From positions 43,128 through 107,127 of IMG/VR virus record IMGVR_UViG_3300042296_000700: 64,000 nucleotides of DNA. One strand, given 5' to 3'. The position numbers and the translations under genes were made by a program. This stretch comes from a virus. The notes beneath the pieces are model-generated. The model saw only the letters and a list, made by a program, of their open reading frames with translations. It had not been told where the DNA came from and made no database searches. Positions 51,995-63,831 of the stretch are shown here, piece after piece. Positions within the stretch are counted from its first letter, which is position 1; each line of letters opens with the position of its first letter.

Positions 51995-52426
51995 TAGGAA
52001 GAAGAGACCAAATACGAGCAATACAATCCAAGTAGAAAAGAACTTGGAAGAACATCTTCATCAATAACCCATTTGAAGGGGGTCTGGGGGAAACTTTACG
52101 AATCCTCAAAACCTTTTCGGCCATGCAGTGGCTGACCCTCGTATCTGTCTGGGAATGAGAGTTCATTTGGTTTCGGCGCCGAATGAATTTGTTTACGCCA
52201 CCGTCGCTCTTGGGGAGAGACGATAACTATGCAGAACTGAAGATAGCAGCATGAGCCCCGCTCCGCAAGCATCTAAGCAACAAAAATAGACAAGGTGTAA
52301 TATTTGTTGCGGGACTGTCTATGTTATTCTTGACTAAGACCGCATGCCCCCCGTGCGGCTCTAAGGCGTTGTAGACGGGACGGGTATGTGAGAGTTCCTC
52401 GTCCCGTCTCCGCTTTAGCGGGGCTG

Positions 52427-52906
52427 TTACTCTGCCAGTGGTAGAAGGAACAGGCGGGACTCCCACATGATTCCGATGGCTGCGTATCCGATGACATCCA
52501 TAATGTTGTCTTCTATAGATTCGTTGTTGGGCTTTACGCCACCGTCAGGACTTGAGAGTAGGTTTTCTAGTCTTGCGACTTTGTCGTGCATTCTGACCAT
52601 GAGTCCTTGCCGCCCGAAGCGGCGGATGTTCTCGTGTCCGTAGTCGCGCTGCTTCCTTATGAGGGTCGCATGAACGTTGTCAATCGTTTGCGGGATGCCG
52701 CGCTTGATTGAGAGTTCTACTGCATCGCCGCCGATGACAGCCCACATTGCTGTGGCTTTCTGGAATCCTGCTGGCGCGTGGAATAGGTCGTCTATGAAAC
52801 CATCCAAATCGCTGCGTACTTGTAGGAGGTCAGCGCGAGGCTTCTTCCTTACTTGAGTGAAGATTCCGTCTAGTGCCCAACGTGCTGCTTCGTCCCATGT
52901 TTCCAT
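52427..52906 (-). CDS. Nucleotide modification-associated domain 1 (DUF1599-like) protein
   Basis: RKQRDYG.ENI, G..VRM.DK.ARL.NL, NESIED...D..GYA.I. Confidence 0.75.
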   Translation of the reverse strand: METWDEAARWALDGIFTQVRKKPRADLLQVRSDLDGFIDDLFHAPAGFQKATAMWAVIGGDAVELSIKRGIPQTIDNVHATLIRKQRDYGHENIRRFGRQGLMVRMHDKVARLENLLSSPDGGVKPNNESIEDNIMDVIGYAAIGIMWESRLFLLPLAE

Positions 52907-52952
52907 TTAGTATTTTTATCACATGGCTATACGCCACCGTCGTTACTTGCAA

Positions 52953-53261
52953 CTACTCTTCATCAAACTTTTTTGATGCTGCCAGTAGTGCCATCTGCAT
53001 CAGGTTGGACATCGCCATCGCTGCTGCTGTTGCTTCTCCGAACTCTTCTGCATTCCGTTCAATTGCACGTGCGAACTTCTCTTCTACGAAACGTTCGTTA
53101 TATAACACGACAATATTATCGTCTGTTAACTGGATGACGACTGGTCCGTCTTCGTCCATTGTTTCTGGGGGTGCGGTGATTACCGCGACATGCTGTCCTG
53201 TTTCTGGGTTTTCAAACCGAAACATTACTTCTGGGTCTTCGCTACCAAATGACATTTCCAT
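52953..53261 (-). CDS. Hypothetical protein
   Basis: AGGAG RBS; acidic ORF. Confidence 0.6.
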   Translation of the reverse strand: MEMSFGSEDPEVMFRFENPETGQHVAVITAPPETMDEDGPVVIQLTDDNIVVLYNERFVEEKFARAIERNAEEFGEATAAAMAMSNLMQMALLAASKKFDEE

Positions 53262-53313
53262 ATTTAATTCTCCTGTGTTTAAGTTTACAGCGGGTGGCTA
53301 TACGCCACCGTCA

Positions 53314-53514
53314 TTACTTGCGAATGATTTCCCAGTCTTCTTTTTTTGTGCATCCTCCTTCAAGGAAGTCTTGTAGTGCTTCTGCTGTTCCGCACTCGGA
53401 GCAGATTTCTGTTTTGTTGTCGGTTCGTGAGATTGCACCAGGGTATTCGCCTGGTTGAAGATTGTTGGGAATCCAGTTGTCGCAACACCGTGGACATATG
53501 TTTGGGATTTTCAT
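53314..53514 (-). CDS. Small Zn-ribbon protein
   Basis: CPRC...YPGAISRTDN.TEICSECG. Confidence 0.65.
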   Translation of the reverse strand: MKIPNICPRCCDNWIPNNLQPGEYPGAISRTDNKTEICSECGTAEALQDFLEGGCTKKEDWEIIRK

Positions 53515-53621
53515 GAGTTTGCCTTCCATTCGCAATATGCGTTGTAGTTTTCGTCGTTGTCTGGGTTTAAACCGTTTTCTTTACACCAGTCGTCGTACGT
53601 TGGTGTCGCTTCAAAAATCAC
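53511..53621 (-). CDS. 36-aa hypothetical protein (not in ORF track)
   Basis: GTG start; MIFEATPTYDDWCKENGLNPD...; overlaps both neighbours by 4 nt. Confidence 0.45.
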   Translation of the reverse strand: MIFEATPTYDDWCKENGLNPDNDENYNAYCEWKANS

Positions 53622-53890
53622 CATAGCGGGTTCTCCTTGTTTATTTTCCAGTTGGTTGGGTGGTTGGCGCGCGACTCCATGGCTGATTGTGATTCATCAT
53701 GCCATTCTTCGTATGTGCGTGCCATGGTTGAAGTGAGTTCGCCGTCTTCATAGAAGTCAAATATTACACCTTCGTTAGTTACAACAAGAATCAAAATGTT
53801 TTGACTGATGTCGTCTGCGTCTGGTGGAAGTTGAATAACGATTTCTTGGCGTGAATCAAACCTGCAGTTGAAATCAATGCTGTTGTTCAT
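53618..53890 (-). CDS. Hypothetical protein
   Basis: GGAG RBS, coupled ORF. Confidence 0.6.
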   Translation of the reverse strand: MNNSIDFNCRFDSRQEIVIQLPPDADDISQNILILVVTNEGVIFDFYEDGELTSTMARTYEEWHDESQSAMESRANHPTNWKINKENPLW

Positions 53891-54120
53891 ACGCGCTCCT
53901 CCGACTTTTCAATGACTGCATCTGCTATCCATTCGGAGAGTTCTACGCCTGCGTCTTCCCAGTCGTCAAACTCTTTGCAGATTTCTGCCCATGCTTCTTT
54001 GGTGAGAACATTCTCGTCGTCGCTGTCGTAATCGTACGATGGCTTTTCCCAGTACAACACACAGATGTCGTCGTCTGGATTTAGTAGTTTGATTTGTCTA
54101 ACAAGGTCTGCAACTTTCAT
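53887..54120 (-). CDS. Hypothetical protein
   Basis: MKVADLV..I..L.PDD.I start; acidic. Confidence 0.6.
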   Translation of the reverse strand: MKVADLVRQIKLLNPDDDICVLYWEKPSYDYDSDDENVLTKEAWAEICKEFDDWEDAGVELSEWIADAVIEKSEERV

Positions 54121-61874: not shown

Positions 61875-62106
61875 CTAGGGTGTCTCCGTTTTCGTCTTGG
61901 AAGATGAGGTCTCTTGCTCGTGCGTTGCGCATCATGTCAAGTGCTTCATTCTCTATGTAGAGAATGACATCATCAAGGGTGAAGTTCATTTCGTCGCCAT
62001 TGAGAACACGATTGTCCTCTTTTAGCGTTTGGATAACTTCCTCAACTCCGTATGTGGTTACCCACATGACATTTATTCTTTCGGGCATTGTTTCTTGTGT
62101 GCTCAT
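61864..62106 (-). CDS. Hypothetical protein
   Basis: Own promoter/RBS; ends IFQDENGD. Confidence 0.6.
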   Translation of the reverse strand: MSTQETMPERINVMWVTTYGVEEVIQTLKEDNRVLNGDEMNFTLDDVILYIENEALDMMRNARARDLIFQDENGDTLDDY

Positions 62107-62168
62107 GGTTGTCCTTTTTTAGTAGTTACAGCAACACCCCTCACTATACATGAGGGGTGTTATAGGGA

Positions 62169-62435
62169 TTATTCCTGTGCGTAGAGCGTGGCTTCATCAA
62201 AGTAGTCGGAGTCATATTTGCGAATAAACTTAATCGCTTCTTCCATTGAGTTTGCTGAAATCATTTTGTTGTAATCCGCGTATGTGCCTGTGTTCATGGT
62301 TGCTTCTACACGATAGAAGTTTCCATCTAATTCTCGTACTTCTAGGTTATGGAAATACAATCCTGTGCCATTCCAGATTATGAGGTCTCCCTCGCCCTGC
62401 GTGAAGTGTCCTTCTGTGTTGTTTTCAGTTGTCAT
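62169..62435 (-). CDS. Hypothetical protein
   Basis: Own promoter. Confidence 0.55.
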   Translation of the reverse strand: MTTENNTEGHFTQGEGDLIIWNGTGLYFHNLEVRELDGNFYRVEATMNTGTYADYNKMISANSMEEAIKFIRKYDSDYFDEATLYAQE

Positions 62436-62565
62436 TAGTTTCTTCTTTTCCAGCCCCTTTCAGAGAGCATAGTAGGTTTACATTTACAGTATAACAGGTT
62501 ATGTAACATAACGCAACCTGACAGCAGAGCAACCACTCCCCGTGAGGAGTGGTCACCCATAGTGG

Positions 62566-63081
62566 TTAGTACCAACAGATGAGTCCGTCGGTGAACTCAC
62601 TTGCCCACTTCAGATACCAAGATGCGTACCTGAGGTCTGGAGTGATGTCCTCACCACCCATGCGGTAAACACCATCATCTTCCTGACATTCGTCAAACGC
62701 CTCGTCAATGACTTGGGCAAGGGTGAGACATGAGCCTTTTGACTTCTCTGTCCCATCTTCGCTATCGCCATAGAACGAGAAGTCGTCGCTATCGCCGTAT
62801 CCGATTGCTTCCAAGAGGTAGTTGCCATACTTGCCTCTGTACCAACAGTCAGTACCGAACATTCCATAGACTGGATTGCCGAGTGCTTCTTTGTCTTGCT
62901 TATTGAGTTCGGTGACATAGGGGCAACCGCCACACGCTTGCGTAGCCTTACAGTCAATGGCAGTCATTACTGACCCATCTTCTTCCAGTATTGGTTGTCC
63001 GTCTTTGTTTAGTCGTGGTGTGATGACCGCAGTTCCCTGCGTTTTACACGGGTATTGCTTGGGGATATTGTCTAGTCCCAT
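62566..63081 (-). CDS. Cys-rich hypothetical protein
   Basis: MGLDN start; C...CGGCP, GMFGTDCWYRGK. Confidence 0.6.
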   Translation of the reverse strand: MGLDNIPKQYPCKTQGTAVITPRLNKDGQPILEEDGSVMTAIDCKATQACGGCPYVTELNKQDKEALGNPVYGMFGTDCWYRGKYGNYLLEAIGYGDSDDFSFYGDSEDGTEKSKGSCLTLAQVIDEAFDECQEDDGVYRMGGEDITPDLRYASWYLKWASEFTDGLICWY

Positions 63082-63149
63082 TTGCTTCTCCTTTGTTTAG
63101 GTTTATACAGCACAGTATAACAGGGGGGTGTCATACTGTCAAACTCTGT

Positions 63150-63461
63150 TCAGATTGCGAACAGAGCCATGAGGTGGTCGGGTGCGTCATAGTTCTCACC
63201 GTCATAAACGCCCTTAGGTGAGAGCGCACCGACGAGAACAATGTTCCCGACGAGGTGACGCTGGAACAAGATGCTTGCCGTGAGGTTTGGCTCAAGTCCC
63301 CAAATGAGACCCTCGTCATTGACATAGCCAACGAAGTCATCTGCTCGGACTACATCTATAAGACCGCCAACTGCGTCTTGGAGAAACTTGAGCGAGTCTT
63401 GCTCAGGAATGTCCACAACTCGTGGGCGACTATCTGTTGGGATAAGTATTGCCTTTGTCAT
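63150..63461 (-). CDS. DUF3846-like protein
   Basis: LQDAVGG.I, YVNDEGL..GL.PN, LVGNIVLVG. Confidence 0.75.
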   Translation of the reverse strand: MTKAILIPTDSRPRVVDIPEQDSLKFLQDAVGGLIDVVRADDFVGYVNDEGLIWGLEPNLTASILFQRHLVGNIVLVGALSPKGVYDGENYDAPDHLMALFAI

Positions 63462-63831
63462 TTCTAAACTCCTTGTTTAGTAGGTATATGTTAAGTATAA
63501 CAGGTGGGTGTATGTTCTGTCAAGTTTATCCGAAAGACTCACTCACTTGCTTCCCCCCATTGTACTGAAGGGGTGTTACATAGATAGAACGAACAAACCT
63601 ATCCAAAGTGTGCGTTTTTTTTATTACATAGCAGAGGGGTGTGACACAGTTACAAGGTCAGCAGTAATCAGAAACTCAATTTTTTCACGGGCTATCGGCT
63701 ACCGTCGCTCTTGTAGCGCACATTCGCCAACTTCCCAACCCCCCTGCGACAACCACTAGCCCCGCATACAAAAGCAGGCGGCAACTGCCCCGCATCGGAA
63801 GATGCGCAGCGGGGCTTCTGGTATCTGGGGC

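Follow-up and report, generated by a model that had tools for sequence, protein, structure and literature searches.

A polar 13-nt word confined to the early block of a family of actinobacterial phages, a possible recognition site for a phage regulator of early transcription

A short asymmetric DNA word, here called the A-box, was found at nine sites in the early block of a phage record and nowhere else in its 107 kb, and the word recurs with the same polarity in related phages. We tentatively interpret the A-box as a site on double-stranded DNA that is recognised by a sequence-specific, phage-encoded protein in control of early-block transcription. On the best reading its action is operator- or stoperator-like, yet outside the system of mycobacteriophage L5.

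Results

Number, polarity and confinement of the A-boxes

The record examined was IMGVR_UViG_3300042296_000700 (107,127 bp), and the window, to which the coordinates below refer, is the 64,000-nt stretch at its positions 43,128-107,127. A search for exact and one-mismatch matches located TACGCCACCGTC in seven exact copies, every one of them on the + strand (52194, 52535, 52930, 53301, 54598, 58283 and 61455); by chance 0.26 would be expected, and none of 100 shuffles reached seven. A weight-matrix scan of the whole record added two variants, at 55350 (TATGCCACCGTT) and 63695 (TCGGCTACCGTC), and identified no A-box on the opposite strand or in the other 95 kb. The nine sites span 52194-63706 and scored 30-50, and the next-best match elsewhere scored 8.4. 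Both scans therefore confirmed the polar, repeated motif described in the earlier note, and the strand-bias check that it had proposed placed 9/9 sites on the + strand within the early region. The genes of the block lie on the - strand, and the A-box read with transcription is 5'-CAAG-N3/4-GACGGTGGCGKAWAGCC. The first four A-boxes are separated by 341, 395 and 371 bp. The features of the block were as follows.

52188..52213, - strand: A-box copy 1, the most distal, with core GACGGTGGCGTA at 52205-52194, within a non-coding stretch of ~430 nt
52529..52554, - strand: A-box copy 2, inside the ORF at 52427-52906, with DGGVKP in a loop between helices
52924..52949, - strand: A-box copy 3, 11 nt past the stop of the ORF at 52953-53261 and 23 nt ahead of the ATG at 52906
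53295..53320, - strand: A-box copy 4, beginning right behind a TAA stop, 39 nt ahead of the ATG at 53261
54592..54617, - strand: A-box copy 5, inside the ORF at 54517-54864 (DGGVNP)
55344..55369, - strand: A-box variant AACGGTGGCATA, overlapping the TAA stop of the ORF at 55360-55803
56693..57094, + strand: HA-sigma4 protein (133 aa, Pfam match), candidate binder, inside the block on the opposite strand
58277..58302, - strand: A-box copy 7, in the 494-aa gene adjoining MoxR, in a hypervariable acidic linker (NDGGVKP)
61388..61432, - strand: three perfect DnaA boxes (TTATCCACA), between A-box copy 8 and promoters
61449..61474, - strand: A-box copy 8, bordering a control region of ~400 nt on its upstream side
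63689..63714, - strand: A-box variant GACGGTAGCCGA, with a terminator-like hairpin and a AGCCCCGC/GCGGGGCT dyad upstream

Distribution in related phages

The complete relative (G002, 128.6 kb) carries 13 A-boxes, 13/13 in one orientation and limited to its leftward early block, and 20 related records together hold ~194 copies in the major orientation versus 3 in the minor one. Every A-box of the near-complete genomes falls within one 15-20 kb block, with 7-15 sites per genome; approaching the distal end, the spacing in each genome falls from 2-4 kb to 0.3-0.6 kb. A set of 206 unique sites yielded the 13-nt core, RACGGTGGCGKAWR; many sites in the relatives are orthologous, so that counts do not represent independent events. 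This core is nearly invariant family-wide and stays constant across phages whose MoxR proteins are 60-94% identical, and the flanks of the element, which measures ~26 bp, shift by clade. The extended consensus put forward in the earlier note holds only for the clade of this phage, and just RACGGTGGCGKAWR remains conserved across the family. Sequence not covered by conserved genes amounts to 42% and contains 75% of the A-boxes, which agrees with selection on the DNA. Such intergenic enrichment would be seen with any long DNA motif, so it does not single out one function.

One clade is A-box-negative and has, at the same place, arrays of 3-5 co-oriented direct repeats of CGCGCGTAT; these have GCGTAT in common with the 3' half of the A-box, and genuine TTGACA promoters follow a short way downstream of them. 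The 7-mer GCGCGTA occurs in this clade 25 times forward and 2 times in reverse. Such an arrangement is that of binding sites and not of promoters.

A-boxes within genes

Three A-boxes lie inside ORFs, where they encode P-DGGVKP (52427-52906, with a weak DUF1599/Nmad1 match), DGGVNP (54517-54864) and N-DGGVKP (the 494-aa gene at 57506-58990, which adjoins a MoxR ATPase gene) with identical codons, GAC GGT GGC GTA AA. All three are kept in the complete relative, and by our own count 0 changes were present in 33 nt (11 non-degenerate core positions) and ~17% differences in the flanks; the sole core change, T to G at the degenerate K position, replaces Val with Gly. The reading frames of in-gene copies in relatives yield DGGxK (28), TVAE/D (21) and RRWR (5), and the copy in the hypervariable acidic linker of the 494-aa gene is present in only a few lineages. 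Because the frame varies among the in-gene copies and the loops that hold them are tolerant, selection acts on the DNA; the alignment of orthologs and the use of different frames thus bore out what had been proposed from the identical codons.

Arrangement relative to promoters

A-boxes typically border promoter regions on their upstream side or separate small distal genes, and the composite control regions follow the order terminator, AGYCCCGC dyad, ~50 nt, A-box, DnaA boxes and promoters. At copy 8, for example, AGCCCCGC words precede the box, and three DnaA boxes and three TGTNACACCCC promoter-like boxes follow it; variant GACGGTAGCCGA has two TGTNACACCCC boxes and a consensus sigma70-type promoter downstream of it. 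Such a promoter (54520-54492) also lies ~90 nt downstream of copy 5, and a promoter-like box, TGTCACACCCC-N5-TAAAGT, lies 5 nt downstream of the variant at 55344..55369. Copy 3 lies over the -35 position that would belong to a possible -10 element, TGnTAAAAA, itself conserved in the complete relative, and a conserved TAAACT is located 13 nt downstream of copy 4. Family-wide, DnaA boxes are ~8-fold enriched 0-90 nt downstream of A-boxes.

Most A-boxes lie 50-250 nt upstream of promoters, not over them, and are nearly absent from 0 to +300; the box was upstream in 77/95 box-promoter pairs and between 0 and +250 in only 7. Start codons occur 3 to >300 nt downstream, and ~40 of 250 sites (~15%) have one within 12 nt. 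Two modules, delimited by A-box and promoter repeats, have changed places between this phage and the complete relative.

The A-box might instead be a phage-specific promoter that forms a temporal class of its own, where transcription would start within or right behind it, through either host polymerase that an unrecognised phage factor redirects or an undetected phage polymerase. The A-boxes are co-oriented with the genes, head the block and most of its units, and often stand in tandem with sigma70-type promoters, and in the distal array no other conserved element occupies the 30-50 nt gaps ahead of small genes; the combination of an invariant core and clade-specific flanks recalls the promoter families of single-subunit polymerases. 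However, TANNNT was not enriched at any offset from the A-box and the T that would complete it is found in only 2/206 sites, leaving no fixed -10 partner; the distance to start codons is highly variable, the linker copy would drive just the 3' half of the 494-aa gene, and the sister motif CGCGCGTAT stands in tandem arrays upstream of true promoters. Furthermore, sigma region 2 (PF04542) and the DxDGD polymerase signature are absent from the complete relative, in which a T7-type RNA polymerase was likewise not found (PF00940, a search whose control was unresponsive in every control genome). Among the large proteins, those that match a family are structural (portal, protease, tape measure and virion protein), and six have no match in either library. 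A conventional promoter was rejected on the missing TANNNT spacing, T7-type polymerase and sigma region 2, and a phage-specific one is unlikely.

Polar signals for DNA translocation or cutting

The earlier note had alternatively suggested a nuclease or translocase signal of the Chi/KOPS type. Chi and KOPS are short words (5-8 nt) that are read by a host enzyme and are over-represented and skewed in the host genome, spread along the full replicon with respect to an end or origin. The A-box element is far longer (13-26 bp) and restricted to one block, and a scan of three actinobacterial MAGs that carry relatives, and that may not be the true hosts, detected 1-2 copies of the 13-mer in each, equal to the reversed control. 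A Chi/KOPS role is therefore unlikely, and by these counts the A-box does not appear to be a host motif.

A polar signal for a translocating or cutting machine more broadly, such as a Chi-like protector from an end-processing nuclease, a T5-like strand-specific nick site or a mark for stepwise genome entry, is improbable. Strict single-strand polarity over the whole block and a density that climbs toward its distal end in every genome would agree with it, as would the nearby DnaA boxes, which also occur in the T5 injection-stop region (bioRxiv 10.1101/866236), the contigs of several relatives, which end 1.6-2.4 kb beyond the last box, and the gain by at least one lineage of a copy in the long MoxR-linked operon, holding the gaps there to <= ~3 kb. 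Besides the length of the element and the MAG counts, it is opposed by the fixed place of the A-box relative to dyads and promoters and by the finding of no nickase linked to it; moreover, no terminus is tied to the block, because circular assemblies break at unrelated places (G019 within the block, G002 elsewhere).

RNA signals and recombination joints

Sense-strand polarity, limitation to early transcripts and the many copies right behind stop codons or 3-12 nt ahead of small-gene starts would suit a word whose functional form is RNA, targeted by an endoribonuclease or translational regulator of the phage, akin to T4 RegB/RegA, and marking early messages for processing or shut-off. We consider this very improbable: no stem-loop or conserved secondary structure was found at the A-box, the word had no Rfam match, no complementary partner was found in the genome, and the first copy and those between terminator-like hairpins and promoters are unlikely to be much transcribed. 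That the A-box is mainly a recombination joint of mobile regulatory cassettes similar to PeSL elements, kept for shuffling small early genes, is hardly credible; the swapped modules and the distal string of small genes with a box before each speak for it, but a 13-bp core is too short for homologous exchange, its invariance across distant clades needs a sequence-specific reader, and no stem-loop accompanies it, shuffling being an expected by-product of repeated control elements.

Discussion

Comparison with known phage control elements

The operators and stoperators of Cluster A mycobacteriophages (L5 gp71, TipsytheTRex repressor) are asymmetric 13-bp sites present in many copies (PMC9283540). 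Like these, A-boxes are asymmetric, ~13 bp long, multicopy, oriented with transcription, positioned at promoters and in short intergenic gaps, and borne by actinobacterial phages. Unlike the Cluster A sites, which number >20 and occupy both arms, the 7-15 A-boxes of a genome share one 15-20 kb block; their core is nearly invariant across distant relatives, whereas Cluster A sites diversify with immunity groups, and many A-boxes lie well upstream (50-250 nt) of promoters. The L5 stoperator analogue drawn in the earlier note, taken as membership of that system, found no support, since no homologue of gp71, a repressor with a helix-turn-helix plus a stoperator domain, was matched at E <= 10 in G000 or the complete G002 (a sequence-level search without positive control), no tyrosine integrase was found in G002, and the sites are not genome-wide. 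The likeness to the L5 word GGTGG amounts to a chance match of letters and is not evidence of kinship. L5-type phages are temperate, with sites that serve immunity, and the protein bound there stops elongation in just one orientation. Because no tyrosine integrase was found, the phage studied here is probably lytic; a ParB-like gene is present. What stood of the proposal of stoperator-like silencing or a nuclease/translocase signal is the stoperator-like site, as the best working analogy; "silencing network" was too specific, given the copies upstream of promoters and the upstream-most A-box at the head of the block, where there is no co-directional transcription that needs stopping.

The T4 MotA boxes and the PeSL cassettes of T4-like phages offer a second comparison, as short asymmetric boxes that point the same way as early and middle genes and frequently accompany early promoters in tandem, and as repeated control elements flanking small shuffled early genes; unlike them, the A-box has no fixed -10 spacing and no stem-loop, and no MotA or AsiA analogue was identified. 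The RfaH ops element, GGCGGTAGCGTG, is a 12-nt polar word on the non-template strand, in the leader downstream of the promoter. The A-box is likewise polar, and variant GACGGTAGCCGA has CGGTAGC in common with ops; unlike ops and nut-type sites, A-boxes are nearly absent just downstream of promoters (0 to +300), and no NusG paralogue (PF02357) was found in the complete relative. The SAS of Cluster K mycobacteriophages is a 13-bp asymmetric repeat a few bases ahead of start codons (PMC3203893), and the A-box resembles it in length, asymmetry and occurrence near gene starts in actinophages, with the difference that only ~15% of A-boxes are within 12 nt of a start, the rest being far upstream or in genes.

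A candidate reader of the A-box and its possible action

The HA-sigma4 protein has three parts: an HA domain at the N-terminus, a flexible linker and, at the C-terminus, a helix-turn-helix of the sigma70 region-4 type. Its two-domain model had a mean pLDDT of 81, and the predicted helix-turn-helix is similar to domain 4 of SigA. All of 23 homologues share an unchanged recognition helix, LSRQRVHQI, and the HA domain is variable and most diverged in the clade with the altered motif. HA-sigma4 is absent from records without both motifs; it was not found in the A-box-bearing record G012 (63% complete), nor near L171, and is present in L178 and L191, records with few or no A-boxes. HA-sigma4 is the leading candidate A-box binder, as yet unproven.

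Under the operator/stoperator-like reading, a monomeric or two-module protein, with HA-sigma4 as its leading candidate, would bind the A-box in one orientation and block or modulate RNA polymerase. It may act as an operator-binding protein where the box covers a -35 position, in a stoperator-like way between cistrons, and as an upstream modulator elsewhere, so that one factor would command the whole block, for instance in early shut-off. A pure roadblock does not account for every site, because most copies lie 50-250 nt upstream of promoters and the first copy has no co-directional transcription upstream to stop. A fuller account, which we offer as speculative and rather doubtful, is that in a lytic actinophage family a small sigma-region-4 mimic, HA-sigma4, reads an asymmetric 13-bp word that heads every early unit and recurs between distal genes, and thereby exerts global, orientation-dependent control over host RNA polymerase throughout the early block; having no sequence kinship with the L5 repressor, it would be an independent invention of the stoperator principle, with half-sites that differ by clade (fused A-box versus CGCGCGTAT arrays).

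Conclusions

In conclusion, the A-box is most likely a variant of known phage control elements, a docking site of a phage regulator of early transcription. If the sigma-region-4-like protein proves to read it, polymerase would be under orientation-dependent control via an asymmetric site in a second, independently evolved system; if the A-box is a promoter, it would reveal an unrecognised polymerase-redirecting factor. For these phages of 90-170 kb from freshwater Actinobacteria, abundant and uncultured, the A-box is the most conserved non-coding word of the early region, on one strand and in one block in dozens of genomes. In metagenomic contigs it identifies the early block; it also defines a regulon, and together with the candidate reader it provides a directly testable handle on early-gene control.

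Occurrence and form of the A-box

The A-box, a polar DNA word repeated in the early block of this phage, was recovered as seven exact copies of the 12-mer TACGCCACCGTC, each on the + strand, from 52194 to 61455 (0.26 expected by chance; none of 100 shuffles reached seven), together with variants at 55350 and 63695. A weight matrix built from the nine sites of the earlier note recovered only those nine in the whole 107,127-bp record, all on one strand and with scores of 30-50, the next-best score anywhere in the record being 8.4. Both the exact search and this record-wide scan for strand bias bore out the claim of nine copies in a single orientation, and the spacings, the three copies inside genes and the codons that these share were also correct as claimed. 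The recognisable genes of the region, which encode a MoxR-type AAA ATPase, the adjacent 494-aa protein, a DUF1281_C protein and a protein with a weak DUF1599/Nmad1 match, are located on the - strand, and therefore the A-box, written along the strand on which those genes lie, is 5'-CAAG-N3/4-GACGGTGGCG(T)A(W)AGCC; the word can also be written as CGCCACCGTTC. A full-text literature search for the word returned only primers and unrelated matches.

Distribution in relatives

Relatives were reached in IMG/VR via the 494-aa protein and MoxR. The complete, circularly assembled relative G002 (128.6 kb) has 13 A-boxes on one strand at 85.2-103.1 kb, which is its entire leftward early block, and none elsewhere. 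Across 53 MoxR-centred loci the core ACGGTGGCG was found 7-13 times in the forward direction, with reverse copies all but absent. When 24 relatives were scanned over their whole records, 20 had A-box matches, with about 194 in the major orientation versus three in the minor one, and a reversed control pattern gave 0-2 matches per record. In near-complete genomes every copy fell within one block of 15-20 kb. The core conserved among 206 unique sites is RACGGTGGCGKAWR, with T almost excluded two positions beyond it (2 of 206 sites) and flanks that are conserved within clades only. A C-to-T variant, ACGGTGGTGGAA, is the dominant form in some phages and occurs alongside the main form in others.

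The clade of L180 and G021 has no A-box, and the same place holds direct repeats of CGCGCGTAT, co-oriented and in arrays of three to five, located after dyads and immediately upstream of well-formed TTGACA-N17-TGnTAGGTT promoters.

L180 (IMGVR_UViG_3300020190_000116), e.g. 3787-3900 and 9007-9130: CGCGCGTAT arrays, upstream of 15 copies of a TCGATTTGACA-N17-TGATAGGTT promoter

The 7-mer GCGCGTA occurs 25 times forward and twice in reverse in the A-box-negative locus, and GCGTAT is common to the CGCGCGTAT repeats and the 3' half of the A-box. As short repeats in tandem ahead of a true promoter, the CGCGCGTAT arrays behave like predicted protein-binding sites rather than promoters. Other clades have highly repeated early-region words of their own, namely ATCGGTCATAAT, GTATACTTAT, GGAAATCTGAAGCACC and the palindrome CTAATCATTAG (L193, L174, L196 and L192/L194).

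Selection on the DNA

About one quarter of the A-box sites lie within long open reading frames, where they are read in different frames as DGGxK (28 sites), TVAE/D (21) or RRWR (5). The copy in the 494-aa gene is situated in a hypervariable acidic linker and is present only in this phage, G002 and L155, in the last of these at a slightly different place. When the three orthologous in-gene copies of this phage and G002 were compared, all 33 non-degenerate core positions were kept, versus flanks that differed by about 17% (manual count), and the core had a single change, a T-to-G substitution at its degenerate K position that altered the amino acid. The multiple reading frames, the copy in the hypervariable linker and the retention of the core against diverging flanks uphold the proposal that selection on the A-box acts at the DNA level. 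Conserved genes leave only 42% of the sequence uncovered, and 75% of sites fall in that part, but this enrichment does not indicate any particular function, because any long DNA motif would avoid coding sequence.

Position within control regions

Several other elements were located in and around the early block of the window:

52000-52430, - strand: apparently non-coding stretch of about 430 nt after the Nmad1-like gene, with an A-box mid-way and several GC-rich hairpins
52254-63816: AGYCCCGC octamer, with all 10 window copies in the early block (2.1 expected), often as AGYCCCGC-N15-GCGGGRCT dyads
54492-63523, - strand: six near-consensus sigma70-type promoters (TTGACA, 17-18 nt, TGn plus TATACT, TACACT or TAGATT)
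54492-63523, - strand: about eight TGTNACACCCC-N5-TANNNT boxes
61388-61432, - strand: DnaA boxes (TTATCCACA), three perfect copies with an A-box on one side and three promoter-like boxes on the other
61475-61520, - strand: Z-DNA-prone tract, alternating CG followed by alternating GT, which adjoins A-box 8 (61449-61474) on its upstream side and is kept in G002

Since sigma70-type promoters and TGTNACACCCC boxes stand beside the A-boxes, the early block has at least three classes of polar control words. Family-wide, A-boxes are concentrated 50-250 nt upstream of predicted start sites, and almost none were found from 0 to +300. Large intergenic regions are ordered as a terminator-like hairpin, a dyad (often 50-100 nt upstream of the A-box), a spacer of about 50 nt, the A-box, often DnaA boxes, and promoters. 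In each near-complete genome the A-box farthest upstream stands at the very head of the early block; that of G013 is located between divergent genes, with the first leftward promoter about 40 nt further on and the first rightward gene 164 nt away. At the distal end an A-box occurs every 300-600 bp and takes up nearly all of the 30-50 nt that separate small genes; it often begins at a stop codon or just past one and ends 3-40 nt ahead of the next start. The stretch at 52000-52430 matches G002 in conserved patches, which a 1-nt indel interrupts. No Rfam family matched this stretch, and a non-coding RNA or a long leader is possible.

DnaA boxes are 8-fold enriched 0-90 nt downstream of A-boxes across the family, with nine copies in 20 kb in L179. 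It is possible that they reflect DnaA-dependent control, DnaA titration or an origin-like module. Their placement recalls the injection-stop region of T5, which has DnaA boxes (bioRxiv 10.1101/866236).

A candidate binding protein

The early block also encodes, on the opposite strand, a protein of 133 aa (HA-sigma4; 56693-57094, + strand) with an HA domain and a sigma70 region-4-type helix-turn-helix. It was modeled as two helical modules with a flexible linker between them (mean pLDDT 81), and the C-terminal one resembles SigA domain 4. The recognition helix LSRQRVHQI is invariant among 23 homologues, and the HA domain is variable, diverging most in the clade whose motif is altered. Records with neither motif (G022 and G025) lack the gene. 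Nor was it detected in one record that does have A-boxes (63% complete) or near locus L171, and two loci that have few A-boxes or none carry it. HA-sigma4 is treated as a lead, a possible but doubtful reader of the A-box. Presence/absence profiling flagged ParB-like, RuvC-like, HNH and WhiB genes with no specific link, and as a way to find the binder this approach was set aside, being confounded by phylogeny and incomplete records.

In G002 a proteasome-subunit-like gene and a WhiB-family gene converge on the early block.

G002 83349-83672, + strand: WhiB-family gene (PF02467, E 1.6e-14), next to the distal end of the block

The host is assigned to the Actinobacteria because this WhiB gene adjoins the block and because relatives were binned in Actinomycetota MAGs.

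Mode of action

We tentatively favor a reading in which the A-box is a predicted protein-binding site through which one phage factor would gain orientation-dependent control of the whole early block. Where it covers a -35 position (52941 and 53312) the A-box would be operator-like; in the gaps between cistrons and within the long MoxR-linked operon it would be stoperator-like, and in large control regions it would serve as an upstream modulator. The bound factor might repress or activate, shut-off being the more natural role because the early promoters have consensus strength.

It is unlikely that the A-box is a separate promoter class. The geometry of two distal copies suits a MotA-like role in place of the -35 element of sigmaA promoters, but across the family no -10 element stands at a fixed offset, and no TANNNT was found at any fixed distance downstream. 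Only a few A-boxes adjoin a TGTNACACCCC promoter, so obligatory pairing with that class was rejected, as were ECF, sigma28 and SigF-type readings (compared by consensus sequence), whose spacings misfit in a phage without sigma region 2. The complete G002 genome gave no match to sigma region 2 or NusG and no DxDGD polymerase signature; it gave no match to a T7-type polymerase either, in a search whose positive control was likewise without a match. Its large proteins are structural or have no family match.

A role as a polar signal for a machine of DNA ends, nicks or genome entry appears improbable. The Chi/KOPS-type signal that the earlier note had offered found no backing in three relative-carrying actinobacterial MAGs, where the 13-mer occurs once or twice, no more often than the reversed control, and is therefore neither a host regulon nor a Chi-like word in these three genomes. 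Four contigs of three lineages (L153, L168, L189 and L195) stop 1.6-2.4 kb beyond their last A-box, where the early block closes at a convergent junction; these ends could be assembly breaks in a variable region or could hint at a physical terminus.

Slightly less probable still is a target at the RNA level. No excess of stable structure was found around A-boxes, Rfam and tRNA scans of the early block were empty, and the TGGC/GCCA pairing of this phage, which had allowed a hairpin promoter or RNA hairpin, is lost in G002 and other clades. A nut-then-terminator arrangement was rejected, as hairpins are not enriched downstream of A-boxes. A cassette recombination joint is very improbable: two modules bounded by A-box and promoter repeats differ in order between this phage (60666-63651) and G002 (94090-97252; 83-94% identity), but this swap is read as a by-product.

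Under the favored protein-binding reading, the system whose action the A-box most resembles is that of the L5 operator/stoperator sites (PMC9283540). The stoperator-like network suggested in the earlier note holds as this nearest working likeness and fails as membership of the L5 system, given the lack of repressor homology (no sequence homologue of L5 gp71 was found), the distribution in one block versus genome-wide and, probably, lifestyle (no tyrosine integrase was found in the complete relative). The A-box thus differs from L5 sites yet belongs among phage control elements of known type. From clade to clade the words used for core promoters and operators are replaced, and the A-box core stays.
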